Notes: a model not told the origin generated them from the sequence alone. 64,000 nt of DNA from an uncultured Acidimicrobiaceae bacterium (GCA_964416425.1 CAYQEC010000005.1:9328-73327), one strand, 5' to 3'. Counted from the first letter of the stretch, positions 6,672 to 55,004 are shown. A program made the numbers and translations.

Positions 6672-7634
6672 GTGGACACCGCGAATGACGAAGAGGGAAC
6701 CGTGACGGACTACTACGACCCGAATCGACCACCTCCCGACGAGCCGTTCGACCCCTACGAGGGCCTGCTCGATCTCTCCGGGGGCGAGCCCATCCCGCCC
6801 CTCGAGGATCCGCGCCTCCCGCCCGCCGGCCCTCCCCGCTCCCCGCTCCTCACCGGCCTCATCCTGGGACTGCTGCTGGTGGTGTTGAGCATCGCCCTCT
6901 TCCAGTTCGCCCGCGGCGACGACACCGCGGCCGGGCCCACCGAGACCACGGCCCCCGGCGACACCGTCGCCGGGGACGGGGGAACCACCGTGGCGGGTAG
7001 CGAAACCACCGCGCCCGACGACGGCTCCACGACATCCTCGACGACGCTCCCGAGTTCCGGACAGCCCTACGTGGCTGCAGGCGATCCGATCCCGATCGAG
7101 GACCTGACGCTCCAGGTCGACGGCATCGGCGAGGTCAAGCTAGGTCAGCCCGCCGCCGAGGCCATCGGGCGCCTCATCGCCAGCCTCGGGGAGCCCGACT
7201 CGGACAGCGGCAACATCGTCTCCTCAGGGACCTACGGGGCGTGCACCGGAGACGCGGTGCGGATCGTCACCTGGGGACCGCTCGCCGCCGTCGTCCTCGT
7301 CGACGACGACGGCACCGAGACCTTCGCCGGCTACCGGGTCGACTGGGACATCCCCACCACGGCGGGAGGAACCCTCGCCGATTCTCCCGCCAGTGACCTC
7401 GCCACCCTCAGCGGGCTCCAGGTGGGGAATTCGGTACGGGAGCTGAAGACCATCTACAACGGCTTCAACATCGACTTCGTCGATGACCCGCAGCTCCATA
7501 CGACCTTCGAGTTGCGGGGCGCCAACACCGACAACCTGCTGCTGTGGGGCCCGGTGACCGCCGACACCGACGCCGGCATCGTCACCGGTATCTACTCTCC
7601 CAACGCCTGCGAGCACTTCTCACTGAACGGGTGA
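6672..7634 (+). CDS. Membrane-anchored protein with the same extracytoplasmic domain as 3380..4594; paralogue B
   Basis: It has an acidic, Pro-rich N-terminus, one TM helix (LLTGLILGLLLVVLSIALF), a Thr-rich linker, and a C-terminal domain with ATLSGLQVG...LLWGPVTADTDAGIVTGIYSPNACEHF. This matches paralogue A, including two conserved Cys residues. Confidence 0.75.
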   Translation: MDTANDEEGTVTDYYDPNRPPPDEPFDPYEGLLDLSGGEPIPPLEDPRLPPAGPPRSPLLTGLILGLLLVVLSIALFQFARGDDTAAGPTETTAPGDTVAGDGGTTVAGSETTAPDDGSTTSSTTLPSSGQPYVAAGDPIPIEDLTLQVDGIGEVKLGQPAAEAIGRLIASLGEPDSDSGNIVSSGTYGACTGDAVRIVTWGPLAAVVLVDDDGTETFAGYRVDWDIPTTAGGTLADSPASDLATLSGLQVGNSVRELKTIYNGFNIDFVDDPQLHTTFELRGANTDNLLLWGPVTADTDAGIVTGIYSPNACEHFSLNG

Positions 7635-7685
7635 AGGTGGTCCGCTAGCATCGCCCCCACCCTCGACCAGGAGAACTCTCCGCCC

Positions 7686-8414
7686 ATGTGGCAGCGCACC
7701 CTGTCGGCCGCCTGGGGAGCCGCCGTCGGCTCCCTGCTCGCCCTTGGCGTCTTGGTGTTGTTCACCGGCCGCCAAGCCATCGGTTCGGTCGGAGCGGTGG
7801 TGCTGGACTACGACGCGGTCCGTGCCCGGCCCCAGTTCGCGGTGTCCAGCGGCGGGCTCTTCCTCTTGGTGGCGGGAATCGCCCTGCTCGGCGGGCTCGC
7901 CGTCGCCGCCCTCACCTACGCCCGCAGCCGAGAGCTGGATCCCACCAGCGAGCGGTTCCCGTTGCGTGCCGTGCTCCCGGTCGGTGCAGTGACCAGCCTC
8001 GTCGCCGGCTATGCCGTGTTGCGGGCCGGTCTCGGGGCGACTGCCGACATCGGCGGCGGCGTAGTCACCATCTCCGCCTTCCGCATGATCGTCGTCACCC
8101 TGCTCGCCGGTTTCGTCGCAGGCGCCGTCACCGCCGGCATCGTCGAACCCCTTGCCCGGAAGCGGGTCCTCGGCTTCGGGGGCGAGGCATGGCCGGCGGA
8201 TCGTGGCACGTTCCTGCGTGCCATGGCACGTGCGGTGGGGGCGCCGATGCTGGCCGCCATCACGATCGTGGCGCTGGCGATCGGTCTGTCCGAACTGCTG
8301 CTCGCCCTCGGCAAGGATGCCGCGGTGGCCGTCTTCGCCGTCGTGGCCGCGGTGGTGCTGGGCGGCGTTGCCCTGGTCGCCTACCGCCCCTGGGACCGAT
8401 CTAACGGCACCTGA
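7686..8414 (+). CDS. Hypothetical polytopic membrane protein (~6 TM)
   Basis: The product is hydrophobic throughout. The alternative frame 7688..8404 is Arg-rich and is rejected. Confidence 0.6.
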   Translation: MWQRTLSAAWGAAVGSLLALGVLVLFTGRQAIGSVGAVVLDYDAVRARPQFAVSSGGLFLLVAGIALLGGLAVAALTYARSRELDPTSERFPLRAVLPVGAVTSLVAGYAVLRAGLGATADIGGGVVTISAFRMIVVTLLAGFVAGAVTAGIVEPLARKRVLGFGGEAWPADRGTFLRAMARAVGAPMLAAITIVALAIGLSELLLALGKDAAVAVFAVVAAVVLGGVALVAYRPWDRSNGT

Positions 8415-24916: not shown

Positions 24917-26338
24917 ATGGCAGCACTGCAAGGCGTGGCGACCACCGGCATCTACTGCCGCAGCACCTGCGCCGCCCAACCTGATCCCCGCAACGTCACC
25001 CCCTACGCCACCAGTGTCGCCGCCGAAGCGGCCGGCTACCGCCCCTGCCTGCGCTGCCGGCCCGACCGGCTCCCGGAGCCGCACCTCCCCGAGGTGGCCC
25101 CGCCGGCGGTCGCCCACGCCCTCGTCCTCATCTCCGACGGCTACCTCGACTCCCACACCGAGGACGCCCTCGCCCGCGCCGTCGGCTACAGCGGGCGCCA
25201 GCTGCGCCGGCTGTTCCTGACCCACGTCGGCGCCAGCCCGGCGTTTGTGGCCCGGTCGCGGCGGGCGCACTTCGCCCGGCGCCTCCTCGACGAGACCGAC
25301 CTGCCGCTCGCCGCGGTGGCGGCCGCCGCCGGCTACCGGTCGACCCGCCAGCTGCACCGGGCGGTCACCGCCACGTTCGCCTTCCCGCCGCGTGAGCTGC
25401 GGGCGAAGCGCCGCCGGCCCGACCGGCCGATCGACGACGGCGGCCTCACGCTGCACGTCCCGTACCACGGCCCGCTCGACCGGGCCCGGCTCCGCCGCCA
25501 CCTCGGGCCGCGTACGGTTCCCGGCGTCGACCACCTCGACGGCGCCGGCGGCTACCGGCGCACGTTCGAGACCTGCGGCTTCGCCGGCCTCATCGATCTC
25601 GATCTGAGCGATGCAACCTCCGACACCGACGGGATGACGCTCACCGCCCACCTGCCGACGATGGCGACGTTGATCGACGACGTCGCCCGCTGCCGCCATC
25701 TGCTCGGGCTCGACGAGCCGGCCACCTCGGGACGGGCGCTGGCCGGCGACGATCTCCTCGGCCCCGAGCTGCAGGCCCGCCCCGGCCTGCGGGTCCCGGG
25801 GTGCTGGGACCGGTTCGAGAGCTTGATCCGCATCGTGATCGGGCAGCAGGTCTCGCTGCGGGGAGCGTCGACGCTGACGAGCCGGGTGGCGGCGGCGGCC
25901 GGGCGCCGCATCCCCGGCGCCGACGACCGCGCCAACCTGGTCTTCCCGGACCCGGCGGCCCTCGCCGCGGCCGACCTCGCAGGGCTCGGCCTCCCTGCCC
26001 GGCGGGCCGCCACGATCCGCACCGTCGCCAACGCCGTCGCCGGGGGCTCGCTCGACCTGTTCCGGTTCGCCCCGCTCGACGACCTCGTCGCCGGGTACTG
26101 CGAGCTGCCCGGCATCGGACCGTGGACGGCCCACATGGCCGCGCTGCGTCTCCACCGCCACCCCGACGCCTTCCCCGCCGGGGACCTGGGACTCCGCAAG
26201 GGGGCGGCGCGGCTGCTCGGCCTCGCCGACCCGATGCCGGCCGTCGACCTCACCGCGCTCGCCGAGCGGTGGCGCCCCCATCGTTCGCTCGCCGCCCAGC
26301 TCCTGTGGACCATCGCCGAGGAAGGACCCCTGACATGA
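24917..26338 (+). CDS. alkA: Ada-AlkA fusion: Ada Zn-binding domain + AraC HTH + AlkA N-terminal + HhH-GPD DNA glycosylase
   Basis: The Ada Zn-binding region is YCRSTCAAQ...CLRCRP, the AraC-type HTH is mid-protein, and the HhH is ELPGIGPWTAHMAALR. The stop overlaps the ogt start. Confidence 0.85.
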   Translation: MAALQGVATTGIYCRSTCAAQPDPRNVTPYATSVAAEAAGYRPCLRCRPDRLPEPHLPEVAPPAVAHALVLISDGYLDSHTEDALARAVGYSGRQLRRLFLTHVGASPAFVARSRRAHFARRLLDETDLPLAAVAAAAGYRSTRQLHRAVTATFAFPPRELRAKRRRPDRPIDDGGLTLHVPYHGPLDRARLRRHLGPRTVPGVDHLDGAGGYRRTFETCGFAGLIDLDLSDATSDTDGMTLTAHLPTMATLIDDVARCRHLLGLDEPATSGRALAGDDLLGPELQARPGLRVPGCWDRFESLIRIVIGQQVSLRGASTLTSRVAAAAGRRIPGADDRANLVFPDPAALAAADLAGLGLPARRAATIRTVANAVAGGSLDLFRFAPLDDLVAGYCELPGIGPWTAHMAALRLHRHPDAFPAGDLGLRKGAARLLGLADPMPAVDLTALAERWRPHRSLAAQLLWTIAEEGPLT

Positions 26339-26832
26339 ACGAGACGCACTTCTCCACCGTGATGCCGTCGCCGGTGGGCGACCTCACGATCGTGGCCACC
26401 GATCGGGGCCTGCGGGCCATCCTCTGGCCCGGCGACGACGACGCCCGGGTGGCGCTGCCGGAGACGACGCCGGATCCCCGGCGGGACCATCCGGTGCTGG
26501 CGGCGACCGTGGCCCAGCTCGGCGAGTACTTCGCCGGTGCCCGCACCACGTTCGATCTCCCCCTCGACCTGCGGGGCACCGACTTCCAGGTGGCGTCGTG
26601 GCGGGCGCTGGCCGAGATCCCGTTCGGCGCCACCACCACCTACGGGGACCAGGCCCGCCGCCTCGGGCGGCCGGCCGCGGCTCGGGCGGTGGGCGCCGCC
26701 ACCGGCCGGAATCCGGTGTCGATCGTGCTGCCCTGCCACCGGGTGGTCGGCAGCGACGGGTCGCTCACCGGCTTCGCCGGCGGCCTCGACACCAAGGCCT
26801 GGTTGCTGCGCCACGAGGGAGCGATCGGTTGA
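26335..26832 (+). CDS. ogt: Methylated-DNA-protein-cysteine methyltransferase
   Basis: The active site is IVLPCHRVVGSDGSLTGF. It is translationally coupled to alkA by ATGA. Confidence 0.9.
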   Translation: MNETHFSTVMPSPVGDLTIVATDRGLRAILWPGDDDARVALPETTPDPRRDHPVLAATVAQLGEYFAGARTTFDLPLDLRGTDFQVASWRALAEIPFGATTTYGDQARRLGRPAAARAVGAATGRNPVSIVLPCHRVVGSDGSLTGFAGGLDTKAWLLRHEGAIG

Positions 26833-27120
26833 CCCCCCTCGACCGTCTTCTCACCCTCCCTGGGACCAGGGAGGTTTCCTCCGCCAAAGGCGGAGGCGTC
26901 GCAGAGGGAGCCGAAGGCGACCGATCCGGGGAGGGTCGCGGCTCACCACGGCACCGCGACCCCCCTCGACCGTCTTCTCACCCTCCCTGGGACCAGGGAG
27001 GGTCGGAGAGCCGTCACCGCAGGTGGCGGCGATCCGGGGAGGGTCGCGGCTCACCACATCACCGCGACCCCCCTCGGGTCGCTCCGCTCCCCGGTCCCCC
27101 CTGATCCCAGGGGGGACGAG
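26831..27120. repeat. Tandem hairpin-rich repeats: unit 1 26831-26957 (127 bp), unit 2 26958-27065 (108 bp), partial unit 3 27066-27120
   Basis: The units share a 5' core gacccccctcgaccgtcttctcaccctccctgggaccagggagg with a perfect 10 bp hairpin CCCTCCCTGG/CCAGGGAGGG. They also share a 3' core gatccggggagggtcgcggctcaccac..caccgc, and the middles vary. Unit junctions form GGGTCGCGG...CCGCGACCC inverted repeats. Confidence 0.85.
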
Positions 27121-27131
27121 AAAGGAGACGC

Positions 27132-27746
27132 TCAGCGGTCTCGGCGCACCGGACGTACGAACGCGGCCCGGGCCGCCTCGACCCGGGCGAAGGTGTCGCA
27201 CTGCGGCTCGTGGTCGTTGACGATCCCCATCGCCTGCATGAAGGCGTACACGGTGGTGGCACCGACGAACGTGAAGCCGCGCCGCTTCAGGTCCTTGGCG
27301 AGAGCGGTCGATTCGGGGGTGACGGGGGCGACGACCCGGTGCTCCGGGTCGGGCTCGTAGCTCCACACCAGCCCCGCCAGCGAGCCGACCTCGTCGATGA
27401 CCTCCCGGGTCCGGGCCGCGTTGTTGATCGTCGACACGATCTTCCCCCGGTGCCGGATGATCCCCTCGTCGTGGAGTAGACGCTCGACGTCGGCCTCGGT
27501 CATGCCGGCGACGGTGTCGATGGCGAAGCCGGAGAACGCCGCCCGGAAGGCGGCCCGGCGCCGCAGGATCGTCAGCCAGCTCAGCCCGGCCTGGAACCCC
27601 TCGAGGCAGAGCTTCTCGAACAGGAGCCGATCGTCGGCCACGGGGAACCCCCACTCGTCGTCGTGGTATGGCTGATAGTCCTCGGCGGAGGCACCCCACC
27701 TGCACCGGGTCACTCCGTCCGTGCCGACGACGAGCGAGGGGTTCAC
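27132..27746 (-). CDS. tag: DNA-3-methyladenine glycosylase I
   Basis: The product begins YHDDEWGFPVADDRLLFEKLCLEGFQAGLSWLTIL and has the C-terminal Zn-site residues. Confidence 0.9.
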   Translation of the reverse strand: MNPSLVVGTDGVTRCRWGASAEDYQPYHDDEWGFPVADDRLLFEKLCLEGFQAGLSWLTILRRRAAFRAAFSGFAIDTVAGMTEADVERLLHDEGIIRHRGKIVSTINNAARTREVIDEVGSLAGLVWSYEPDPEHRVVAPVTPESTALAKDLKRRGFTFVGATTVYAFMQAMGIVNDHEPQCDTFARVEAARAAFVRPVRRDR

Positions 27747-28898: not shown

Positions 28899-29044
28899 GG
28901 GGGGTTCTCGTGTGCGGCTTCTGCTACCGCGTGCCCTCCACCCGGGCCGACAGCCCGGTAAAGGGATACGCGAAAGAGAAGCCGTATGTCATCGCCGCGA
29001 CAACATACCGGGCCGCGGCCGTCGACGCAATACCGGGGGACCCG

Positions 29045-29581
29045 CTACTGGGCGGAAGGGCCCTTGCGGCGCACGTCTTCGACCTGCACCAGCGCCTGCC
29101 GCAGCTCGCCGAGCCACTCGTCGAGGTTGTGGCCGACCAGCCGGACGCACCAGGCGAGGGCTTCGCTGCGGCTGCGCGCCACCCCGGCGTCGACGAGGGT
29201 GTCGAGCACCTTGCGCTCCCGAAGGCGGAGCCGGGTCATCGCCGGGATCGAGAGGTGGGTGAACAGCATGGCGAACTCCCCGGCCCGAGCACCCCACGAC
29301 ACCTTGCGCTCGAACCGGGCCTCGGCGGCGGTGGCGATCTCGATCCGGCGCTGCCGGGTCTCCTCCCGGTGAGTGGTGATACGCGCCTCACACCGTTCCC
29401 GCCGCACCGGCGCCGCCAGATCGGCGCCGCCTTCCTCGGCGGGGAGGGTGCCGATCACGAGGATCTCGTCGCGATCGACGGCGATCCGCACCGGGCCGCT
29501 GAACCAGCCCTCGGGGATCCGATCCGCGAACCAGGCTTGCAGCTCGGCCTCGTCGATCTCGGGGGGCTTGTCGTGGCCCAT
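29045..29581 (-). CDS. Hypothetical cytoplasmic protein
   Basis: The 178 aa ORF has a protein-like composition and I recognise no motif in it. Confidence 0.5.
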   Translation of the reverse strand: MGHDKPPEIDEAELQAWFADRIPEGWFSGPVRIAVDRDEILVIGTLPAEEGGADLAAPVRRERCEARITTHREETRQRRIEIATAAEARFERKVSWGARAGEFAMLFTHLSIPAMTRLRLRERKVLDTLVDAGVARSRSEALAWCVRLVGHNLDEWLGELRQALVQVEDVRRKGPSAQ

Positions 29582-29844
29582 GGCTGCAGGCTACCGGGCC
29601 ACCCAGAGCCACACGAGCAGGGCGACCCCGGCCACGATCGGCATCCCCACCTCGACGGCATCCCGCAGCCGCCCCACCACCCGGCGTTGCGGCGATCCGA
29701 CCTCGCGCCACACGACGGCCGCCAAGCCCGCCGCGACGAGCACGGTCCCGATCGTCAACACCAGGGTGTGCCACCCGTCCACGGGCCGGAGGTTACCGGC
29801 GCGGCGCCGCCTTCCCGCTTCCCCGCCACCCGTACACTGGCTCG

Positions 29845-30072
29845 ATGGCCACACCACCCGAATCCCTGCTCCGCCGCAGCGCCTGGGTGATGCTGCTCGC
29901 CGCCGCCTGGACCGCCTTCGTGTGGCTCAACCGCATCGTGAACCTGATCGGCGACGATCGTTCCCTCGGATTCCTCGTGGTTCACTACGTCATCGCCGCC
30001 ATCTCCCTGGGCATCGCCGCCGCTCTCGGCTGGTACGGCTGGGGTCTGCTGCGCCGGGCCCGCAGCGGCTGA
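29845..30072 (+). CDS. Small two-TM membrane protein
   Basis: The product is MATPPESLLRRSAWVMLLAAAWTAFVWLNRIVNLIG...VVHYVIAAISLGIAAALGWYGW. Confidence 0.4.
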   Translation: MATPPESLLRRSAWVMLLAAAWTAFVWLNRIVNLIGDDRSLGFLVVHYVIAAISLGIAAALGWYGWGLLRRARSG

Positions 30073-30159
30073 CAACACGCCCGCCACTCACGACGGGTTT
30101 CCTCCCATTCGGGCCATACTGCGTGTCACCCACGGGGGACGACGCCTGCAGGAGGCGAC

Positions 30160-30726
30160 ATGATGGGAAGCCGGTTGCTGCGGATCGCCACGGTCGCGGT
30201 GGCGTGCGTCCTGGTGCTCGCCGGATGCGCCACCGGACCAGATGCGGAGACGGCGACCACCACGTCGGAGGCCGTACCGTCACCGGGACCGATCACCGCG
30301 GAGGTGGAAGCCGACCTCACCGCGCGGGCATTGCAGTCGTATTGTGCGGCGCACTGTGACGACCTGGACCGTTTCGTCTACAACACGACGCTCACCGCCA
30401 CCATGCCGGAGAGCGCCCACCACGCCATGCCTGCCTCGGTGCGGGAGGCCATCGAAGCGGCCGACGACCGGTTCGACTTCGTCACCGGCGCCGAGGCCGA
30501 TGCTCTGTTCGGGCCGGACGGGTTGGTGGACGGAGGGCGGGGCATCCTGCTCAGCGTCGGGCCGGTGCAGTCCCTCACCGACCGTGTCGTCGGCATCGAG
30601 GTCGGTGGCGTCACCGGTCGCGACGGAGGCCTCGGCATCGTCATGCAGTTCGAATGGGACGGTGACTGCTGGACCGCCGTCACACCCGAGCAGAGCGGTG
30701 TCACGGTGACGAGCTGGGTCGCCTGA
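30160..30726 (+). CDS. Lipoprotein, hypothetical
   Basis: The signal peptide and lipobox are VAVACVLVLAGCATG. Confidence 0.65.
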   Translation: MMGSRLLRIATVAVACVLVLAGCATGPDAETATTTSEAVPSPGPITAEVEADLTARALQSYCAAHCDDLDRFVYNTTLTATMPESAHHAMPASVREAIEAADDRFDFVTGAEADALFGPDGLVDGGRGILLSVGPVQSLTDRVVGIEVGGVTGRDGGLGIVMQFEWDGDCWTAVTPEQSGVTVTSWVA

Positions 30727-30813
30727 AAGGAAGCGGCATGACCGTTCAACAGCTCGTCACCGGATTCATCAGCGACGACCTCGGGCTGGAACGCGAGGAG
30801 AACCGGTCTCGCC

Positions 30814-31236
30814 CTACCCGTCGAGGCGTTTCACGAAGAAGTTGCTGGTGACGGTGAACCCGAGCCGCTCGTAGAAGCGACGGGCCTCGGCCCGGGCCAG
30901 GTTGCTGTGTAGGTCCACCATGACGGCGCCGCGGGCCCGGGCCGCCCCCACCACCTCGGCCACCAGCGCCGCCCCGATCCCGGCGGAACGGCGTCCCTCA
31001 TCGACGACGAGGGCGTCGATCGAGGTCACCTTCGCTCCCTGGTGGAGGTGATGACGGGTGTGGAAGGAGACGAAGCCGATCACCTCCCCGTCCTCGGCCA
31101 CGATCGTCTCCGCGCCCGGCTCGGCAGCCAGCCCACGTCGTACCTCGTCCGGCGTCCGTTGGTAACCGAGTTGGCCGAGCAGGGAGACGAGAGCGTCGAT
31201 ATCACCCTCGCGCGCCGGTCGGAAGCTCACCGCCAT
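30814..31236 (-). CDS. GNAT family N-acetyltransferase
   Basis: The acetyl-CoA-binding motif is VVDEGRRSAGIGAALV, followed by YERLGF. Confidence 0.85.
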   Translation of the reverse strand: MAVSFRPAREGDIDALVSLLGQLGYQRTPDEVRRGLAAEPGAETIVAEDGEVIGFVSFHTRHHLHQGAKVTSIDALVVDEGRRSAGIGAALVAEVVGAARARGAVMVDLHSNLARAEARRFYERLGFTVTSNFFVKRLDG

Positions 31237-31328
31237 GTCGCCATGATGGTCCGACTCGTCTCGTGTGAGATCCCCAATATCCCTCAATGACTATTGACGC
31301 AATGGAGGTTGAGGCTTAGGGTGCCGGC

Positions 31329-31994
31329 ATGGCACCACCAGACCTCACCCGGCGAGCCGACCAGTACGCGGCACTCGGAGATGTCGCCCGCCTCGCCATC
31401 GTCGACGACCTCGCCCTCTCCGACCGCTCCCCGACCGAACTGGGATCACGCCACGGGCTCCCCTCCAACCTGCTCGCCCACCACCTCGGCGTGCTGGATC
31501 GGGCCGGGCTCATCGAACGCCACGAGTCGTCCGGCGACCGGAGACGCCGCTACGTGCGCCTCCGTTTCGAGGCCCTCGCCGACCTCCGCATCGGGCTCGC
31601 CATCCCCGACGGCCCGGTACTCTTCATCTGCACCCAGAACTCGGCCCGCTCCCAGCTCGCCGCCGAGCTGTGGAAGCGCCGCACCGGACGCCCGGCGGAG
31701 AGCGCCGGCACCCACCCCGCCGCCCGGGTGCATCCCGGAGCGGTGGCGGCCGCCGCCCGCGCCGGTCTCGACCTCTCCCGAGCCCACCCCCGCCGCCTCG
31801 ACGAGGTGAAGCGCGACCCCGCCCTGGTCGTGACCGTGTGCGATCAGGCCCACGAGGAGCTCACGCCCGGCGAGTCGTGGTGGCACTGGTCGATCCCCGA
31901 CCCGGTCGACTCGTCCCGCTCCGACTCCTTCGACCTCGCCCTCTCCCAGCTCCAGCACCGTGTCGACGCCCTCACAGGAGGCTCCCGCTCATGA
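31329..31994 (+). CDS. ArsR-family HTH fused to LMW-PTP-type arsenate reductase (ArsR-ArsC)
   Basis: The N-terminal ArsR HTH includes LGDVARLAIVDDL...PTELGSRHGLPSNLLAHHLGVL. The C-terminal CX5R P-loop is FICTQNSARSQ. Confidence 0.8.
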   Translation: MAPPDLTRRADQYAALGDVARLAIVDDLALSDRSPTELGSRHGLPSNLLAHHLGVLDRAGLIERHESSGDRRRRYVRLRFEALADLRIGLAIPDGPVLFICTQNSARSQLAAELWKRRTGRPAESAGTHPAARVHPGAVAAAARAGLDLSRAHPRRLDEVKRDPALVVTVCDQAHEELTPGESWWHWSIPDPVDSSRSDSFDLALSQLQHRVDALTGGSRS

Positions 31995-32644
31995 CCGACG
32001 TCACCGGCACCAACCTCACCACCGAGCAGCTCTACCTCGTCAAGCAGTCGGCCCGCCGCCTCCAGGACGAGTTCAGCGGCGTCTTCTCCACCGAGACCGT
32101 GGAACGCTTCATCGCCGAATCCCACCACGACCTCGAGACGCGGGCCTCCGTGACGAGCTGGCTCCCCATCCTCATCGAGCGCTTCACCCGGGACCGCCTC
32201 AAGGCGCTCGCTCGGGTGGAGGGCCTCTCCGCCGACACCAACCCCGCCGTGCTCTTCCTCTGCGTCCACAACGCCGGCCGCTCCCAGATGGCCGCCGGAT
32301 GGCTCCGCCACCTCGCCGGCGACGCCGTCGACGTCTACTCCGGCGGATCGGACCCGGGGTCCGAGATCAACGCCGCGGCGGTCGAGGCGATGGCCGAGAT
32401 CGGCATCGACATCCGCTCCGAGTTCCCCAAACCGTGGACCGACGAGATCGTGCGCGCCGCCGACGTCGTCGTCACCATGGGCTGCGGCGACGCCTGCCCG
32501 CTGTTCCCCGGCAAGCGCTACGAGGACTGGGAGCTCACCGACCCGGCCGGCCAGCCACTCGAGGTGGTCCGCACCGTGCGGGACGACATCGAGCAGCGGG
32601 TCCGCACCCTCATGGAGAGCCTGGACGTGCCGGCCCGGGTGTGA
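31991..32644 (+). CDS. LMW-PTP-family arsenate reductase-like protein with an N-terminal helical extension
   Basis: The ATG overlaps the upstream stop (ATGA). The P-loop is LFLCVHNAGRSQ, and CGDACP lies downstream. Confidence 0.8.
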   Translation: MTDVTGTNLTTEQLYLVKQSARRLQDEFSGVFSTETVERFIAESHHDLETRASVTSWLPILIERFTRDRLKALARVEGLSADTNPAVLFLCVHNAGRSQMAAGWLRHLAGDAVDVYSGGSDPGSEINAAAVEAMAEIGIDIRSEFPKPWTDEIVRAADVVVTMGCGDACPLFPGKRYEDWELTDPAGQPLEVVRTVRDDIEQRVRTLMESLDVPARV

Positions 32645-32657
32645 CCGCCCGACCGGC

Positions 32658-33569
32658 TCAGCCCAACAGCAGCGGATCGATCGCGATGGCGAGGAAGAGC
32701 ACCGCCAGGTAGACGTTGGAGTAGCCGAAGAAGCGCATTGCCTCCCCCGGGTCGCGCCGTAGCCGCCACGTCCCGTACACCAACCAGGCGCCCAGCTCCG
32801 CCGCCGTCGCCAGGTAGATCCATCCCACCGCCCCGGTGGCGAAGAGGAGCAGCGAGACCCCCACCAGCACCACGCTGTAGGCCAGGATGTGGTCGAGGGC
32901 CCGCTCCACCCCCACCACCACCGGCAGCATCGGCACCCCGGCGGCGGCGTAGTCGTCGCGGTAGCGGATCGCCAGTGCCCAGAAATGCGGCGGGGTCCAG
33001 AAGAACACGATGGCGAACATGACCCAGGCCGGCAGCGCCAGCGTGCCGGTGACGGCCGCCCACCCGACCAACGTGGGAACCGAACCGGCGGCCCCGCCGA
33101 TCACGATGTTCTGGGTCGTGGTGCGCTTCAAGGCAATCGAATAGACGAGAACGTAGAACAGCAACGCCGAGGTGGAGAGCAGGGCGACGAGCAGGTTCAC
33201 CGTGAGCCACAGCCAGGCGAACCCGGCAGCGCCCAGCACCATCCCGAAGCCGACCGCGGCCCGCTCCGACACCCGCCCGGTCGGCAGTGGCCGCCGCCGG
33301 GTGCGACCCATCACCCGGTCGATGTCACGGTCGATCACCTGGTTCATGGCGTTGGCCCCGCCCGAGGAGAGGGTGCCGCCGACGAGGGTGGCGAGCACCA
33401 GCCAGGTGTCGGGCCAACCGCCGGCGGCGACGACCATGGCGGGCACGGTGGTGGTGAGCAGCAGCTCGATGATCCGCGGCTTCGTCAGCTCGAGGTAGGC
33501 CTTCGCCTTCTGCGGGAACGTCGCCGCCGGAGCCCGCGGGTCGGTGATCCGGATCTGGGGGGTGCTCAC
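32658..33569 (-). CDS. ctaB: Protoheme IX farnesyltransferase (heme O synthase)
   Basis: A GTG at 33569 overlaps the ctaA stop (GTGA). The UbiA-family motifs are NQVIDRDIDRVM...RTRRRPLP. The 700 aa track ORF is a fusion artefact. Confidence 0.9.
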   Translation of the reverse strand: MSTPQIRITDPRAPAATFPQKAKAYLELTKPRIIELLLTTTVPAMVVAAGGWPDTWLVLATLVGGTLSSGGANAMNQVIDRDIDRVMGRTRRRPLPTGRVSERAAVGFGMVLGAAGFAWLWLTVNLLVALLSTSALLFYVLVYSIALKRTTTQNIVIGGAAGSVPTLVGWAAVTGTLALPAWVMFAIVFFWTPPHFWALAIRYRDDYAAAGVPMLPVVVGVERALDHILAYSVVLVGVSLLLFATGAVGWIYLATAAELGAWLVYGTWRLRRDPGEAMRFFGYSNVYLAVLFLAIAIDPLLLG

Positions 33570-34549
33570 ACCGGATCCGCCACCGGATGGCGGGAGGCCG
33601 GCTCCAGCCCACGGGCGGCGGCGGGCACCGCCAGCACCTGGGCGCCGAGGAGCACGAACAGCACCCAGAGGGCGTCGGCGGCGAGCAAGTGCACCAGCTG
33701 GGCCTCCAAGGGGGTCAGCAAAGCGATGTTGACGACGCCGATCACGAACTGGGCCCACACCACCACCTGCACCGCCAGTGCCAACCTCCGTATCGCCGGC
33801 CCTCCGAGCACCGCGAGACGCCGGGCGAGGACGTAGACGGCGATGCCGCCGGCGATGGCGATGAGCGGGTGCACGGTGCGGAGCCGCAGCAGGAACGGGG
33901 CCGCCGGCCCGAACTCGGCGCGGATGCCTCCCACCACCGACTCGGCCTCGTGGAGCGTGTCGGCCAGAGCGTTGAGCGCCCCGGAGGCGGCGACGGCGAG
34001 GATGATCACCAGGCCGCCCAGCACCCGGCGGTCCCACGGTCGCTCCGGATGCACCTCGAACCCCTTCCCGCCCCCGGCGAAATACGCCACCAGAGCCAAG
34101 GCGCCCAGCAGCAGGAACGTGTTCGTGAGGTGGAGTGGCACCACGAAGGCCCGCCCCACCGAGGCGTTGGTGTCGACCCATCCGAAGACGACGAGTGAGG
34201 CCCCGATCAGCGACTCGATCACGAAGAGCGCCAGCGCGGTCCACAGGGCACGCCGCACCCGGTGCCGGGGCGGGAAGAGGCGCCGGGTCCACACGATGAG
34301 AACGACGATGGCGACCGCCAGTGCCACCGTCGTCATCCGGTGCGTGAACTCGATGAGCGTCTCCGACGTGGCCGAGAACGGGATGATGTGGCCCCGGCAA
34401 CGCGGCCACGTTTCCCCGCAGCCGGCACCCGAACCCGTGGCGCGCACCACCGCGCCGCCCAGGATCACCACCACGGTCAGCGCCAGGACGCTCCACGAGA
34501 GGGCCGTGTACGCGCGAGGAGATGGGGCATCGCGCGAGACTTCTGCCAT
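33566..34549 (-). CDS. ctaA: Heme A synthase (COX15/CtaA)
   Basis: The product is an 8-TM protein with the Cys pair CGETWPRC and conserved His in TM helices (FTHRMTT). Confidence 0.85.
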   Translation of the reverse strand: MAEVSRDAPSPRAYTALSWSVLALTVVVILGGAVVRATGSGAGCGETWPRCRGHIIPFSATSETLIEFTHRMTTVALAVAIVVLIVWTRRLFPPRHRVRRALWTALALFVIESLIGASLVVFGWVDTNASVGRAFVVPLHLTNTFLLLGALALVAYFAGGGKGFEVHPERPWDRRVLGGLVIILAVAASGALNALADTLHEAESVVGGIRAEFGPAAPFLLRLRTVHPLIAIAGGIAVYVLARRLAVLGGPAIRRLALAVQVVVWAQFVIGVVNIALLTPLEAQLVHLLAADALWVLFVLLGAQVLAVPAAARGLEPASRHPVADPV

Positions 34550-34760
34550 GTGCGAAGGCTACCCTTGGTGGCGGCCCATCGGTGTGACGGGCCGTTCGAA
34601 GCGGAGCAAGCGAAGCGACTGCGGCCGGTTCCGGCCGGGAGGACTCGACATTGGGCGGCGAATCCGTCTGGTTTCGGCGTGCTGGTCGTGGAGGTTGTTC
34701 CGGTGCCGAACGTGGAGAGGCACGACGTAAGAGAAGGATCCCCCTTTGGAGGCACCCCAC

Positions 34761-36470
34761 ATGAGTTCATTTGCGAAACGATCGCGATTGCTCGTGGTGA
34801 TCGCCCTCTTTGCACTCATCGCAGCCGCCTGCGGTGACAGCACAGAGGAGACCAGCACGACAGTCGCGGCAACCACCACGACGACGACAGAAGCCGCCAC
34901 GCCCGACGAGACCACTACCACGACGGAAGCGGCCCCAGAGGTGCCCACCGAGCTGGCCGGCCTGACGGTCGTCGACGACACCACCTTCACGGTCGAGCTG
35001 ACCACCGCCGACCCCGAGTTCCCGCTTCGCTTGGCCTACGCAGCGTACTTCCCGCTGCCGGATGCCTTCTTCGACGATCCAGACGCCTACGAAGAGGCCC
35101 CCATTGGGAACGGCCCCTTCATGATGGACGGCACCTGGAACCACGATCAGAACATCCTGCTGACCAAGTGGGAGGATTACCCGGGCTCGAACCCTGCACA
35201 GGTCGGCCAGATCGAGTTCATGATCTTTGCCGACATGGCTACGGCCTATAACGAGGCCCTCGCCGGCAACCTCGATGTCGTGGACACGGTGCTGCCCGAT
35301 TTCCTCGCCGTCTACAAGGACGACTTCCCGGGAAGGAACGCTGAGGCAGGCACCACGAGCTTCGGCTACCTCGGTATCCCCTCCTACGTGGAGGCGTACA
35401 CCAAGGACGTGCGACAGGCCCTGAACATGGCCGTTGACATCGACCTCGTCGTCGAGACGGTCTTCCAGGGTGCCCGTGATCCGGCGCACTCGGTGATCCC
35501 ACCGAACCTCGCCGGGGCGCGGGAGTTCGTCTGCGACAGCTGGAGCTTCGACCCAGCTGCGGCGAAGGCACTGTGGGATGCAGCCGGCTTCGAGGATGAC
35601 ATCGTTGTCTGGTTCAACGAAGGCTCGGGCCACGAACTGTGGGTCGAGGCCATCGTGAACCAGTGGGGCGAGAACCTCGGGATCGACACGTCCGCAGTCC
35701 AATTCGAGCAGATGGAGTGGTCGGAGTATCTGCCGCTGCTCGACGAGCAGGGCGCCACCGGTCCGTTCCGGCTTGGTTGGGGCATGGACTATCCGTCGCC
35801 CTACAACTTCCTGCAGCCGCTGTTCGCTACCGAGAGCACTCCTGACGTTGGCGGGTCGAACAACACGTTCTACAGCAACCCGGACTTCGATCAGGCTCTG
35901 GCCGATGGCGTAGATGCCTTCGCAGCCAGTGGCTCCCTGAGCGACGCCATTCCGTTCTACCAGCATGCTGAGGACATCCTCTGTGAGGATGCCCAGATCA
36001 TCCCGGTGTACTTCGGCAAGAGCCAGTACGTCTGGAACGAGGGCGTCGACAACATCGTGATCGATGCGTTCGCAGACCTCGGCTACACCCTGGCCACTTC
36101 AGACGACGACCACGTGTCGACTGCGCTCGTTGAGCCTGAGCACCTGATGCCTACGAACTCCAACGAGTCCGAGGGCATCGCCGTGCTTCGGGCGCTCTTC
36201 GCGCCGCTCGTCCAGTACGACCCGGCCACGATGGAGCAGTTCCTCTTGTCCGCCGAGTCGGTCTCGTCGGACGACGGAGGCACGACCTGGACCATCGTGC
36301 TGAAGCCTGACTGGACGTTCCACAATGGCGAGCCGGTGACGGCGTCGTCGTTCGTGAACGCCTGGAACTACGGGGCGTACGGCCCGAACGGTCAGCAGAA
36401 CAACAGCTTCTACAACAACATCGTCGGCTACGCCGAGATGAACCCGGCCCCCGAGGAGGAATCCGAGTAG
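34761..36470 (+). CDS. ABC transporter substrate-binding lipoprotein, family 5 (peptide/nickel)
   Basis: A GGAGG precedes the ATG. The lipobox is LIAAACGD and a Thr-rich linker follows. The body is an SBP_bac_5-like domain. Confidence 0.85.
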   Translation: MSSFAKRSRLLVVIALFALIAAACGDSTEETSTTVAATTTTTTEAATPDETTTTTEAAPEVPTELAGLTVVDDTTFTVELTTADPEFPLRLAYAAYFPLPDAFFDDPDAYEEAPIGNGPFMMDGTWNHDQNILLTKWEDYPGSNPAQVGQIEFMIFADMATAYNEALAGNLDVVDTVLPDFLAVYKDDFPGRNAEAGTTSFGYLGIPSYVEAYTKDVRQALNMAVDIDLVVETVFQGARDPAHSVIPPNLAGAREFVCDSWSFDPAAAKALWDAAGFEDDIVVWFNEGSGHELWVEAIVNQWGENLGIDTSAVQFEQMEWSEYLPLLDEQGATGPFRLGWGMDYPSPYNFLQPLFATESTPDVGGSNNTFYSNPDFDQALADGVDAFAASGSLSDAIPFYQHAEDILCEDAQIIPVYFGKSQYVWNEGVDNIVIDAFADLGYTLATSDDDHVSTALVEPEHLMPTNSNESEGIAVLRALFAPLVQYDPATMEQFLLSAESVSSDDGGTTWTIVLKPDWTFHNGEPVTASSFVNAWNYGAYGPNGQQNNSFYNNIVGYAEMNPAPEEESE

Positions 36471-36525
36471 TCGGTTTCATCCATCTGAAGACGCGGAAGG
36501 GCGCTCCGATGGGGCGCCCTTCGGC

Positions 36526-37512
36526 GTGGACCGGATCGATCCGCTAGATTCCTACCGCCCGACCCTGGTGAAGAAGGAGACGCTCTTGGGGCGGTATCTG
36601 GTACGACGAATCCTCCAGTTCATCCCGGTGTTCTTCGTTGCCACCGCCATCATCTTCCTCTTCGTGTACCTGATGCCGGGAGACCCCATCCGGGCACTGG
36701 CTGGTGACCGGCAGATGTCGCCGTCGACCCGCCAGGCGCTGCGGGACCGCTACGACCTCGACGACCCATTTCACGTTCAGTACGTCAAGTACATGGGCCG
36801 GCTCTTCACCGGGGATCTCGGTGAGGATTTCCGCGGCCAACAGGTGACCGAGAAGCTGGCCGCCAAGCTGCCCGTGACCATGCGGCTCGCTCTCATGGCT
36901 TTCGTCTTCGAGGTGGTGATAGGGATCCTCGCCGGGATCCTTGCCGGCGTCCGCAAGAACGGCTTCATGGACAACCTGGTCTTAGCAAGCACGCTGGTGG
37001 TGATTGCGATCCCGATCTTCGTGCTGGGCTTCATAGCCCAGTACATGCTGGGGGTGAGGTTGGGAGTCATGCCGATCTCCTACAACCCCAGTCGTCCGAC
37101 CTTCAGTCTCCTCATGCCTGCGCTGGTACTGGGCTCGGTGTCGCTGGCCTACATCGCCCGCCTCACACGAACCAGCCTGGTAGAGAACCTGCGTGCCGAC
37201 TACGTGCGCACTGCGACTTCGAAGGGACTTTCGCGGCGGCGTGTGGTGGGCATACACACCCTGCGCAATTCGATGATCCCGGTGGTCACCTACCTCGCCA
37301 TCGATCTCGGCGCCCTGATGGGAGGCGCCATCATCACCGAGACCATCTTCAATGTGCCCGGCATCGGCAGAGAGGTGTACAACGCGGTGCGGAGCCAGGA
37401 GAACGCCGTCGTGGTGGGCATCGTCACCTTCCTCGTCGTCGTGTACATGGTCGCCAATCTGGTCGTGGACGTGCTCTACGCCGTGCTCGATCCGAGGATC
37501 CGCTATGACTGA
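36526..37512 (+). CDS. ABC transporter permease (DppB/OppB-like)
   Basis: The product is a BPD_transp_1 permease with 6 TM helices. Confidence 0.9.
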   Translation: MDRIDPLDSYRPTLVKKETLLGRYLVRRILQFIPVFFVATAIIFLFVYLMPGDPIRALAGDRQMSPSTRQALRDRYDLDDPFHVQYVKYMGRLFTGDLGEDFRGQQVTEKLAAKLPVTMRLALMAFVFEVVIGILAGILAGVRKNGFMDNLVLASTLVVIAIPIFVLGFIAQYMLGVRLGVMPISYNPSRPTFSLLMPALVLGSVSLAYIARLTRTSLVENLRADYVRTATSKGLSRRRVVGIHTLRNSMIPVVTYLAIDLGALMGGAIITETIFNVPGIGREVYNAVRSQENAVVVGIVTFLVVVYMVANLVVDVLYAVLDPRIRYD

Positions 37513-38422
37513 ACCGATGACCAGCGCCGCACTGGTAGGGGCGGAGGCGATCGAGGAGATACCGATTGGGCCGGAAGGAAGCTTGTGGTCGGACGCGTGG
37601 CGCCTGCTACGGCGGCGTCCCATCTTCATCATCTCGTCACTGCTGGTGATTCTCATGGTTCTCATCGCTCTCTTCCCAGGCCTCTTCAACTTCCCCGGCT
37701 ACAACCCGCGCGATTGCCCGTTGCAGGATGCGCGGCTGCGGCCGAGCGCCGAGCACTGGTTCGGTACGGATCTGCTTGGCTGCGATTACTACGCCCGTGT
37801 CCTCTACGGGACACGGGTGTCGATCGCCATCGGAATCATCGTCACCACCGTCGCCACCGTTGTTGCCCTCATCTTCGGATCAATCGCCGGCTACTACGGG
37901 GGTCTCGTCGACACGCTCATCGCTCGCGCCACCGACGTGGTGTTCGCCATCCCCCTCATCCTGGGCGGCATCCTCATCCTCAGCCTCGTCGGGCAGCGTG
38001 GGATCATGCAGGTGAGCGCGGTACTCATCCTCTTGGGATGGCCGACGATGCTCCGCCTGGCGCGCTCGTCGGTCCTGGCGGTCAAGGAGAACGACTACGT
38101 CGATGCGGCTCGTGCTCTGGGGGCGAGCAGCTTCCGGATCATCCGCCGTCACATCCTCCCCAATGCGCTGGCTCCGGTGATCGTCTACGCCACCATCACC
38201 GTGGGAACGATCATCGCGGCGGAAGCGGCGCTCTCGTTCCTCGGTGTCGGCCTCCAGCTCCCCGCTATCTCCTGGGGCCTCATGATCAGCGTTGCCCAAA
38301 ACCGGCTACGCACCGATCCCCACCTGCTGTTCTTCCCCGGGCTCTTCCTCTCCATCACGGTGTTCGCCTTCATCTTGATGGGTGACGCCCTGCGCGACGC
38401 TCTCGATCCGAAGCTCCGCTGA
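37505..38422 (+). CDS. ABC transporter permease (DppC/OppC-like)
   Basis: The ATG at 37505 overlaps the upstream stop. The EAA-like loop is ARALGASSFRIIRRHILPNA. Confidence 0.9.
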   Translation: MTEPMTSAALVGAEAIEEIPIGPEGSLWSDAWRLLRRRPIFIISSLLVILMVLIALFPGLFNFPGYNPRDCPLQDARLRPSAEHWFGTDLLGCDYYARVLYGTRVSIAIGIIVTTVATVVALIFGSIAGYYGGLVDTLIARATDVVFAIPLILGGILILSLVGQRGIMQVSAVLILLGWPTMLRLARSSVLAVKENDYVDAARALGASSFRIIRRHILPNALAPVIVYATITVGTIIAAEAALSFLGVGLQLPAISWGLMISVAQNRLRTDPHLLFFPGLFLSITVFAFILMGDALRDALDPKLR

Positions 38423-39465
38423 TGACAGCCGTGGATACCTACAAGAAGAACACGATCGGTGATCGAGCGCTCGATCCCTCGGCGCCGCTGCTCACCGTTG
38501 ATGATCTCCACGTCGAGTTCCGCATGGACATGGGCACGGTGAAGGCGGTCAATGGCCTCACCTACAGCCTGGACCGGCATGAGACGCTGGCCATCCTCGG
38601 TGAGTCCGGAAGCGGAAAGAGCGTGAATGCCCAGGCGGTGATGGGCATCATCGACACCCCTCCCGGCTACGTCACTCGAGGGAGCGTGAAGTTCCGCGGC
38701 GCCGAGCTCCTCGACCTTCCGGAGTCACAGCGACGCACGGTGCGCGGAGAGCGCATCGCGATGATCTTCCAGGATGCTCTCACCGCCCTCAACCCGGTCT
38801 TCTCTGTCGGATGGCAGATCGCCGAGATGTTCCGCATCCATCGGGGCGCGACCAAGAAAGAGGGCTTCGAGAGGGCGATCGGGTTGATGGACCGAGCCAA
38901 GATCCCCATGGCCCGAGAGCGGGTGAACTCCTACCCGCACGAGTTCTCCGGGGGGATGCGTCAGCGGGTGATGATCGCCATGGCGCTGGCGCTCGACCCT
39001 GACATCCTCATCGCCGACGAGCCGACGACGGCCCTCGACGTCACCGTACAGGCCCAGATCATGCAGCTGCTCGCCGATCTCCAGCAGGAGACCGGCATGG
39101 GCCTCATCCTCATCACCCACGACCTCGGCGTCGTCGCCGAAGTGGCCGACAACGTCGTCGTGATGTATGCCGGGCGGGAGGTCGAGACGGGGGAGATCAA
39201 CCAGGTGTACCACGATCCGACCCATCCCTACACGCTCGGGCTCATGCAGTCGATTCCACGGCCTGACGTGCACACCGACCGCCTCAACCCCATCAAGGGA
39301 TCTCCTCCCGACCTCATGCACATCCCGTCGGGGTGCCCGTTCCATCCCCGCTGCCCCTATGCCAGGGAGAAGTGCGTCATCGAGGAGCCGTCCCTGCATG
39401 AGGTCGCTCCGGGGCGAGTGAGCGCTTGCCACTTCTGGAAGGAGGTCCGCGGTGACCGCGCCTGA
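38422..39465 (+). CDS. ABC transporter ATP-binding protein (DppD/OppD-like)
   Basis: The Walker A is GESGSGKS, the signature is FSGGMRQR and the Walker B is [12 protein letters not shown]. An oligopeptide C-terminal domain follows. Confidence 0.95.
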
Positions 39466-54269: not shown

Positions 54270-55004
54270 CTACCCGCTGCCGTCGCCCTTCGACCCCCGC
54301 GATCGCATCGAGCGCGACTCGAGCGGGCGCAAGACGAGCAGGGCGGTCAACATCCCGAGCAACGCCGCCGGCAGCAGGTTCAGGCGCATTTCCTCCACGA
54401 TTCCGAGGAAGGCGAACCCGACCACCTCCAACGGAGTCGTCGGGTAGGACGCGGCACCCGCCCCGGTGACGAAGGACACCGGCGGCAGAGTGGGAACGGA
54501 CGGTCGGGCATCTTCGGCCGGGGCCTCGCCCGCCGGAGGGTCAGCCCCCGGCGGTGGGGCCTCGTCGCCGACCAGCGTGGTGGTGGTGGTCATGGTGGTG
54601 GTCGTGGTCGCCGGGGGTGGGGCGGTAGTCGTGGGGGACGCCGGCGGGACCGTCGTAGTCGTGGTCGTCACCGGCGGGACCGTCGTGGTCGTGGTCGTCA
54701 CCGGCGGGACCGTCGTGGTCGTGGTCGTCACCGGCGGGACCGTCGTGGTCGTGTCGCCCGGCTCCGGGTCGTCCTTGACGTCCTTTGGCTTCTTCGGCTT
54801 CTTCACGTCCGGGGCTCCGTCGCCTTCGCCGTCGTCGTACCAGAAGAACGCCGCAACGACCGAGGTCGCCTCGCTCCCAGCGCCGATGGAGAGGATGCCC
54901 TGCGCCGCGGTGCCCGTGGCAGGCTGGGCCGCCGCCGGGGAACCAACGCCGACGACGAGGCCGAACACGAGCCAGAGGCCGACGATGGCAGGCCACCGCC
55001 TCAT
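54270..55004 (-). CDS. Thr/Pro-repeat protein with a signal peptide and a C-terminal TM anchor
   Basis: The product begins MRRWPAIVGLWLVFGLVVGVGSPAAA and contains KKPKKPKDVKDDPEPGDTTTTVPPV followed by three (TTTTTVPPV) repeats. A C-terminal helix follows. The start overlaps the histidine kinase stop (ATGA). Confidence 0.7.
   Translation of the reverse strand: MRRWPAIVGLWLVFGLVVGVGSPAAAQPATGTAAQGILSIGAGSEATSVVAAFFWYDDGEGDGAPDVKKPKKPKDVKDDPEPGDTTTTVPPVTTTTTTVPPVTTTTTTVPPVTTTTTTVPPASPTTTAPPPATTTTTMTTTTTLVGDEAPPPGADPPAGEAPAEDARPSVPTLPPVSFVTGAGAASYPTTPLEVVGFAFLGIVEEMRLNLLPAALLGMLTALLVLRPLESRSMRSRGSKGDGSG
54637..54756. repeat. About four 30 bp tandem repeats (gtcaccggcgggaccgtcgtggtcgtggtc) inside the Thr/Pro-repeat gene
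   Basis: There are three perfect copies and one degenerate copy, all in-frame. Confidence 0.85.

Follow-up and report, generated by a model that had tools for sequence, protein, structure and literature searches.

Whether a dense block of repeats and hairpins between two convergent DNA-repair genes is a regulator of these genes, a local duplication or part of something more widespread is the question raised by the spacer that separates ogt and tag in a stretch of 64,000 nucleotides from an uncultured Acidimicrobiaceae bacterium (GCA_964416425.1, CAYQEC010000005.1:9328-73327), hereafter the window. The genes ogt (26335-26832, plus strand) and tag (27132-27746, minus strand) face each other across 299 bp. 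The initial annotation of this region, made from the sequence alone, described two and a half tandem units and compared them with intergenic palindromes such as repetitive extragenic palindromes (REPs) or transposable elements of the miniature inverted-repeat type (MITEs), or with a structured small RNA. The analysis reported here indicates that the spacer is probably a small mosaic built from three copies of a palindromic repeat family that is dispersed and non-coding, and of the same kind as REPs, bacterial interspersed mosaic elements (BIMEs) and REP doublets forming hairpins (REPINs). The family is assigned to this kind and to no named family, and it is apparently undescribed; no paper linking Acidimicrobiia with such repeats was found in the literature searched.

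Modular units in the ogt-tag spacer

A repeat search of the window located a 44-nt block at 26831-26874 that recurs at 26958-27001 with 100% identity (spacing 127), and a 47-nt block at 26922-26968 that recurs at 27030-27076 with 96% identity (spacing 108). The repeat blocks first described from the ogt stop codon onwards are thus present, the first of them beginning on the GA of the ogt TGA stop, and the same search gave 14 inverted repeats. The conserved 3' core of the earlier description is recovered as a 27-nt sequence with exactly two occurrences, 0 being expected from shuffles, and the palindrome of the head hairpin described below lies at 26854-26874 and 26981-27001, with no site expected by chance. 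Moreover, the 9-bp inverted repeat noticed at the unit junctions, GGGTCGCGG/CCGCGACCC, was recovered; its arms can be followed over 15-21 nt at 86-87%, and it corresponds to the pairing of two types of tails, T and C. The predicted folds, which the initial annotation had proposed to examine, are far better than those of shuffled sequences on both strands (z = -7.7 and -7.55). Since the units differ by 19 nt in length, the array escaped Tandem Repeats Finder, and blastn-short revealed no further match within the 64 kb.

Together with copies from other genomes (the analysed loci carry L numbers), these repeats resolve into units of 66-105 nt, each composed of a 5' tag, a head hairpin, a middle part and a G-rich tail box, GRGGRGGGTCGCGG. 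The tag reads YCTGTC in other genomes and TTCTC in this organism. The head hairpin has a 10-bp stem and a 4-nt GGAY loop, with 100% of cells paired in 19 units and three covarying pairs, and it defines two subtypes, T and C, whose heads differ at three base pairs, all compensatory (A-U/G-C, C-G/U-A and U-A/C-G). The middle part consists of one or two hairpins whose stem sequence and length differ among copies, giving three length classes: a long form (T-long), in which an additional hairpin is placed where the head stem begins at its foot, a medium form with a hairpin of 7-9 bp, and a short form with a mini-hairpin of 2-3 bp. Over the whole structure, 92.4% of cells are paired, in comparison with 39-58% when the partners are slid; changes on both sides occur in eight pairs, and the observed covariation score was reached in 0/500 shuffles. 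Most of the middle hairpins also share a type of loop: 23 of the 31 distinct ones end in a GNA triloop closed by C-G (GAA 9, GGA 7, GCA 5, GTA 2), placed on at least 10 different stems. Loops of the d(GNA) type closed by C-G are unusually stable as DNA (PMC3201870, PMC13037366). An apparent strand asymmetry of G-T versus A-C mismatches in the middle hairpins (raw ratio 15:1) was discarded as an artefact of the extension rule, about three internal G-T and one A-C remaining, which is too few.

A covariance model was built from 19 aligned complete units. Run on the window with filters off, it matched the ogt-tag cluster alone, the three units scoring 67-79 bits and a remnant 38 bits, with the next best match at 14 bits. 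The features of the spacer are the following:

26831-26841, minus strand: remnant of a C-type tail box; the plus strand reads GACCCCCCTCG, the reverse complement of CGAGGGGGGTC, and is identical to 26958-26968 and 27066-27076.
26843-26943, plus strand: T-type unit, long form; covariance-model match of 67.4 bits, E = 1.6e-16. Parts, on the same strand: tag TTCTCAC (26848-26854), head hairpin (26854-26874), extra hairpin (26878-26896), middle segment (26898-26921) and tail box GATCCGGGGAGGGTCGCGG (26923-26941).
26942-26968, no strand assigned: 12-nt loop (26942-26953), then the remnant of a C-type tail, CCGCGACCCCCCTCG (26954-26968); inverted repeat, 15 nt at 87%.
26970-27051, plus strand: T-type unit, medium form; covariance-model match of 79.3 bits, E = 7.6e-20. 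Parts, on the same strand: tag (26975-26981), head hairpin (26981-27001, stem of 10-11 bp) and tail box (27031-27049).
27050-27061, no strand assigned: 12-nt spacer CTCACCACATCA between the tail of the T unit and that of the inverted C unit; loop of the doublet hairpin.
27060-27127, minus strand, in the sense of the tag gene: C-type unit, short form; covariance-model match of 74.2 bits, E = 2e-18, with perfect 10-nt arms. Parts, on the same strand: tag TTCTCGT, head hairpin GTCCCCCCTG-GGAT-CAGGGGGGAC (27094-27117), a GCGGAGC mini-hairpin as middle part and tail CGAGGGGGGTCGCGG (27062-27076).

This dissection modifies the earlier picture in several respects. Two T-type units are indeed present, whereas the supposed half unit is a complete C-type unit on the opposite strand. 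The perfect 10-bp hairpin ascribed to each unit exists in the second one, but the head stem of the first measures 9 bp, since position 26875 is T. The extra 8-bp hairpin of the first unit was found as described (CCTCCGCC-AAA-GGCGGAGG, 26878-26896), although the middle hairpin of the second, GCCGTCACC-GCA-GGTGGCGGC at 27010-27030, had been overlooked. The arms of the extra hairpin read CCTCTGCC/GGCAGAGG elsewhere, which is a compensatory change. The long architecture also occurs in L046, L037 and L052, the medium one in L050, L052 and L067, and the short C-type unit aligns with those of L039, L042, L054 and L060. The two T-type units of the window are different variants of the family and not copies of each other, long and medium forms both being present in other genomes.

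Throughout the family, the tail box is nearly always followed by a loop of 10-17 nt and the reverse complement of the tail of the other subtype, and therefore the basic arrangement is a tail-to-tail T/C doublet whose tails pair with each other, in the manner of a REPIN. In such doublets of 150-200 nt, the heads form imperfect inverted ends of about 28 nt. Doublets and fragments are assembled into clusters of 2-4 units in mixed orientation, forming alternating or tandem BIME-like arrays, and single and partial units are frequent. In the window, the medium T-type unit and the C-type unit constitute one doublet (26970-27127), and the DNA fold of 27030-27084 reaches -20.0 kcal/mol (z = -4.9). The remnant at 26954-26968 pairs with the tail of the preceding T unit (DNA fold of -15.4 kcal/mol, z = -2.96) and is overlapped by a minus-strand covariance-model match at 26952-27013 (38 bits). 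In line with the initial annotation, a CRISPR array was rejected, because the repeated block, at 80 nt, is longer than the 23-50 nt of CRISPR repeats, the two supposed spacers (47 and 28 nt) recur elsewhere as conserved family modules instead of being unique, and one unit is inverted.

Some copies are preceded by 'stuttered' half-heads, that is, runs of 3-6 tags with the left arm only that stand before a complete head hairpin, for example TCTCGTCCCCCCT every 17-20 nt. These were observed in L070 (about 6125-6330 and 7680-7843, minus strand) and upstream of the head in L072, L075 and L081, and slippage or repeated abortive copying at the hairpin are both possible origins.

Dispersal, genomic context and locus history

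The dispersal of the family was addressed by scanning 185,579 species-representative genomes for exact matches to the 20-nt head palindrome CCYCCCTGGGAYCAGGGRGG, which yielded 46 loci in total, distributed among metagenome-assembled genomes (MAGs) and other sources as follows:

MAG CAZQUB01 ('uncultured Acidimicrobiaceae'): 17 loci
MAG CAYUDA01 ('uncultured Acidimicrobiaceae'): 10 loci
MAG CAZMSN01 ('uncultured Acidimicrobiaceae'): 3 loci
MAG JASFUV01 (Acidimicrobiia): 1 locus
Thermoplasmata MAG: 6 loci
Other phyla, scattered: 9 loci

In the four Acidimicrobiaceae/Acidimicrobiia MAGs, 31 contigs carry the head with matching flanking modules on both sides. The covariance model returned 87 matches at E <= 0.1 in 183 kb of MAG loci, 46 of them at 45 bits or more, and 35 additional matches on metagenome contigs. 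A metagenome scan with a longer head pattern recovered 15 contigs, all from the same Joint Genome Institute (JGI) sample series, with arrays of up to three units. Searches of plasmid and phage collections and of the IMG/VR viral collection gave no match. Loci from other phyla and from the Thermoplasmata MAG were rejected as members of the family, because they have nothing but the 20-mer in common with it and reach at most 32 bits with the model. Taken together, these data support a family dispersed in a clade of uncultured Acidimicrobiaceae and bear out the suggestion of a REP- or MITE-like intergenic palindromic element. Dispersal, which had been singled out as the point to check, was observed in related genomes and in the source metagenomes.

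Two further observations concern the head sequence. The Thermoplasmata archaeon MAG BP_742 (L025, L036, L051, L053, L062 and L064) holds a different repeat with conserved flanks of its own, in which the same 20-nt palindrome, CCCCCCTGGGATCAGGGGGG, is followed by TTGGGGGGTCGATGGTCACCGG; scoring at most 32 bits, it is a different element. Moreover, a third head variant with the same tag and flanks has the centre GTCCCCCCTT-TTGGCA/TCGACA-AAGGGGGGAC (L034, L044, L045, L046, L057 and L068; for example, L045 at about 3940-4030). The 20-mer scan would not pick up this variant, so that the scans underestimate the size of the family.

The null reading of the initial annotation, in which a terminator-like hairpin region would have been duplicated in tandem at this site without further importance, would account for blocks that are 96-100% identical and for the lack of another copy in the 64-kb window. 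However, it is scarcely credible, given that dozens of unrelated loci, spread over at least four other genomes, carry the same modules, that the first and second units are different variants, each with counterparts elsewhere, and that the third unit belongs to the other subtype and lies on the opposite strand. Nor is the spacer an artefact of assembly, since an identical spacer is present in an independent JGI assembly (L013 = L087) of a strain with a different Tag protein. Among the Logan contigs, six end directly after the tag-side hairpin and others end 28 nt past the ogt stop; such breaks of short-read contigs inside the spacer are the behaviour expected of a repeated sequence, and many scan matches likewise lie less than 100 nt from a contig end.

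With respect to genomic context, 80/80 elements (50 clusters, redundant loci removed) are intergenic. By approximate counts, the 15 clusters with both neighbours known comprise 6 between convergent, 8 between tandem and 1 between divergent genes, and gene 3' ends make up 44 of the 63 known flanks, with a median distance to the stop codon of about 45 nt. The neighbouring genes are unrelated to each other and include those of a deaminase, ribF, an amidase, an ABC transporter and an HNH protein. These observations bear on whether the spacer could be a structured non-coding RNA gene or a cis-regulatory RNA specific to ogt and tag. Very stable predicted folds on both strands and compensatory changes in the stems would agree with such an RNA, yet the same elements stand beside the unrelated genes just named, their copy number and orientation differ between loci, and one related species has the same genes without a spacer. 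Furthermore, a search of Rfam with E values up to 10 produced only chance microRNA-like matches (the best, mir-61, with 29.1 bits against a gathering threshold of 77), and no promoter-like site was found within the elements. The small-RNA alternative offered at the outset therefore loses its footing, and an RNA dedicated to these two genes is very improbable.

The history of the locus is consistent with gain and loss of units. At the orthologous locus of one relative (L021-L023), tag and ogt overlap by 4 bp and there is no spacer, while in another (L017-L020, MAG CAZMSN01) a 137-bp spacer contains one diverged C-type unit beside tag. The latter relative had been taken to be free of the repeat, as blast and the covariance model gave nothing, until direct alignment revealed this unit with its variant head. 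Array length also varies at another locus (L080 versus L077 and L045), where a single short T-type unit in one assembly corresponds to a short T-type unit, an inverted unit and a second short T-type unit in the others. Recombination between units is the likely cause of these differences. Elsewhere, two different assemblies have clusters on both sides of a cytidine/deoxycytidylate deaminase gene (L037 at 2-224 and 1723-1827; L074 at 4287-4449 and 4965-5238), and some cluster positions thus appear to be inherited and not newly inserted.

The preferred explanation, a dispersed family of REP, BIME or REPIN kind, would imply that these units are repeated DNA of a non-autonomous kind, which either spreads to intergenic sites by the 3' ends of genes or persists only there, and that they are mobilised in trans, possibly as single-stranded DNA. 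At ogt-tag, both convergent transcripts would end in very stable stem-loops instead of canonical hairpin-plus-U terminators. These stem-loops would passively block 3' exonucleases, shield both mRNAs and limit read-through into the opposing gene, so that a role as an RNA barrier at 3' ends may be inferred for this locus. The sole terminator-like match is a weak 5-bp stem on the minus strand (27142-27125), which has the stop codon of the tag gene in its loop; the T-rich tail of this match, CTTTCTCGT, corresponds to the 5' tag of the C-type unit.

Several results weigh against this explanation. The 64-kb window has one cluster only, dispersal is shown in relatives and not in this very genome, and the T-head variant of the window, with its GGGACC loop, was seen at ogt-tag only, in one metagenome scan. 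The loci were ascertained via an exact head match and genes were called with a script based on G+C content at third codon positions (GC3), which makes the context statistics approximate. Inside the elements, a consensus scan for hairpin-plus-U terminators was negative. With respect to the adjacent gene, element orientation has no significant bias (26 head-first versus 18 tail-first), which weakens the case for an RNA function tied strictly to one strand; a head-first rule was dropped on the same counts. Finally, the means of copying left no trace in the material searched: Pfam identified no PF01797 (Y1 HUH transposase) among 20 proteins encoded beside or between clusters, tblastn with E. coli RayT gave no relevant match in 527 kb including the window and the Acidimicrobiaceae loci, and no direct repeats indicative of target-site duplication occur at the flanks of 40 units.

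Known repeat systems and candidate modes of copying

REPs, BIMEs and REPINs are small palindromes found downstream of genes, between unidirectional or convergent open reading frames (ORFs); their units are often paired in opposite orientation and fold into larger structures, for which roles in termination and mRNA stabilisation have been hypothesised (PMC3733652, PMC2817692, PMC3337134, PMC3116915). The present family resembles the REPs and BIMEs of Enterobacteria and Pseudomonas in being made of short imperfect extragenic palindromes near stop codons, mainly between convergent or co-directional genes, and in having two subtypes in alternating orientation, variable linkers and a copy number that varies per cluster (PMC2817692, PMC3733652). 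It differs in its unrelated sequence, in its host (Acidimicrobiia, Actinomycetota) and in its composite unit of 66-105 nt with head, variable middle and tail box, where a REP is a single palindrome of 20-40 nt, and it has no GTAG tag. REP/BIME copy number typically exceeds 100 per genome; the counts obtained here, 17 and 10 contigs holding the exact 20-mer in two MAGs and 46 matches of at least 45 bits in 183 kb, refer to ascertained loci and not to whole genomes. With REPINs, the family shares the pair of related inverted units, the short variable spacer and the potential to form one long hairpin, and its singlets resemble decayed doublets. Its halves are, however, distinct subtypes, T and C, instead of the same REP, and they join tail-to-tail via G-rich boxes.

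A further group of interest is that of the CGTC-tagged REPs, which have a CGTC tag (variants TGTC and CCTC), a loop of 4-5 nt, a CCA tail and a stem of 8-9 bp whose first two pairs are A-T, and for which no Actinobacteria are among the phyla reported (Di Nocera et al. 2013, PMC3733652). Outside the window, the stem of most copies likewise adjoins, on its 5' side, an unpaired tag with TGTC at its end, and the two groups have in common a 4-nt loop, the lack of a known dedicated transposase and units often paired in opposite orientation. By contrast, the stems of the present family are G+C-rich and 10 bp long, with A-T only at the first pair of the T subtype; CGR or CGG follows the stem, with no CCA, and the copies of the window carry TCTC and not TGTC.

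The BOX elements of Streptococcus pneumoniae, with their boxA-boxB(n)-boxC arrangement, are also intergenic and modular, with a middle module that varies in number, conserved end modules and stable predicted folds, as is the case here. They are unrelated to the present family in sequence and host and lack the organisation in inverted doublets of two subtypes. Mycobacterial interspersed repetitive units (MIRUs) of the variable-number tandem repeat (VNTR) type are similar in consisting of actinobacterial intergenic tandem units of about 50-100 bp with strain-variable copy number. MIRUs are arranged head-to-tail, are largely non-palindromic and lie within operons, with small ORFs overlapping the neighbouring genes, whereas the units described here are palindromic, occur in both orientations and are located at gene 3' ends.

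The likeness to REPINs raises the question of what copies these elements. In a strict REPIN-RAYT system, a REP-associated tyrosine transposase (RAYT), that is, a dedicated single-copy HUH Y1 enzyme encoded elsewhere in the genome, would move the T/C doublets in the form of hairpins of single-stranded DNA. Inverted doublets with a spacer fit the published definition of REPINs (PMC3337134, PMC3116915); the head stem has a short conserved tag immediately on its 5' side; and C(GNA)G triloops, being unusually stable as DNA (PMC3201870, PMC13037366), would suit folding as single-stranded DNA. Nevertheless, neither the window nor the analysed loci, which are genome fragments only, yielded a RAYT or IS200-like gene, and the tag, YCTGTC or TTCTC, is not GTAG. 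For non-GTAG REPs of the CGTC/TGTC type, no dedicated transposase was found by Di Nocera et al., whose survey lists no Actinobacteria (PMC3733652). A strict system of this type is consequently regarded as a minor possibility.

A MITE, with terminal inverted repeats and target-site duplications, would instead be moved by the transposase of a parent insertion sequence (IS). The heads of the doublets, forming imperfect terminal inverted repeats of about 28 nt at the ends of an element of 150-200 nt, are compatible with this view, but no direct repeats flank the units, no IS bearing these ends occurs in any analysed locus, single and partial units are common, and the plasmid, phage and viral collections are devoid of matches. 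A MITE origin is thus improbable.

A different route has been considered in which the T/C doublets are substrates of a REPIN-like system free of RAYT, folding as single-stranded DNA and copied by an enzyme of the Acidimicrobiia. It draws on the C(GNA)G triloops, a hyper-stable DNA mini-hairpin motif kept on stems of changing sequence, on the short tag at the foot of the head hairpin and on the stuttered half-heads upstream of some copies, and it is put forward as a slim possibility only. The 20 proteins encoded beside or between clusters are housekeeping proteins, together with one DUF559 protein and one DUF222-HNH protein, and perhaps a DUF222-HNH nuclease is the enzyme in such a process.

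The DUF222-HNH endonuclease gene lies in L070 (6318-7439, minus strand) between two arrays of three units in the same orientation (5861-6124 and 7518-7797). A 76%-identical orthologue in another MAG (L027, 2668-3789) has units on both sides, one of them cut by the contig end.

If the spacer is a mosaic of dispersed REP-like repeats, its conspicuous structure would be explained as part of a genome-wide family and not as a locus-specific regulator, and the breaks of short-read Acidimicrobiaceae assemblies at such sites would be explained as well. The family would add an actinobacterial lineage to the carriers of REP/BIME-like mosaics. Moreover, its defined modules, two covarying subtypes and DNA-type triloops make it suited to the question of which agent copies REP-like elements when no RAYT is present, and it could serve to test barriers at transcript 3' ends in bacteria of high G+C content, which have few canonical terminators. 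The covariance model could be used for masking or for a census of these repeats in MAGs.

Flanking genes and other features of the window

The convergent setting of the spacer, as first annotated, is confirmed by the domains of the two flanking proteins:

26335-26832, plus strand: ogt, O6-alkylguanine-DNA methyltransferase, 165 aa; Pfam PF02870 and PF01035 on an identical protein.
27132-27746, minus strand: tag, DNA-3-methyladenine glycosylase I, 204 aa; Pfam PF03352 and ORF listing.

The first of these is the final gene of an ada/alkA-ogt pair, and its TGA stop (26830-26832) overlaps the first repeat block; the tag stop codon is 4 nt away from the C-type unit. The source organism is an uncultured member of the Acidimicrobiia, as the Tag homologues bear such names, the closest relatives being 79-83% identical. 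Three alkylation-repair genes are clustered at 24917-27746, with an Ada-AraC-AlkA fusion and ogt on one side and tag converging on both. The matching regions in relatives are L017 6001-8810 and L021 6001-8509; in the L017 species, ada/alkA and the gpsA-like gene next to it are missing, while ada/alkA is kept in the L021 species.

Other features of the window stand apart from the repeat family. An oligopeptide-type ABC transporter operon (SBP_bac_5, two BPD_transp_1 and ABC_tran) at 34504-39120 is 97% identical to L017 1-4619, whereas identity to the L017 species is only 82-84% for the syntenic genes around it. The L017 operon stands directly beside a 3-deoxy-D-arabino-heptulosonate 7-phosphate (DAHP) synthase gene, from which it is separated in the window by 5.4 kb of other genes (29034-34503). 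On this comparison, the operon looks like the product of a recent interspecies transfer or recombination. A near-perfect tandem repeat of 30 bp in 3.8 copies (98%) at 54641-54753 most likely lies inside an ORF (54270-55286, minus strand), in which it would encode TTTTTTVPPV repeats, an ordinary-looking Thr/Pro-rich linker. Lastly, an imperfect ACC/CCA-rich repeat tract with periods of 3-36 nt occupies positions 3948-4052.

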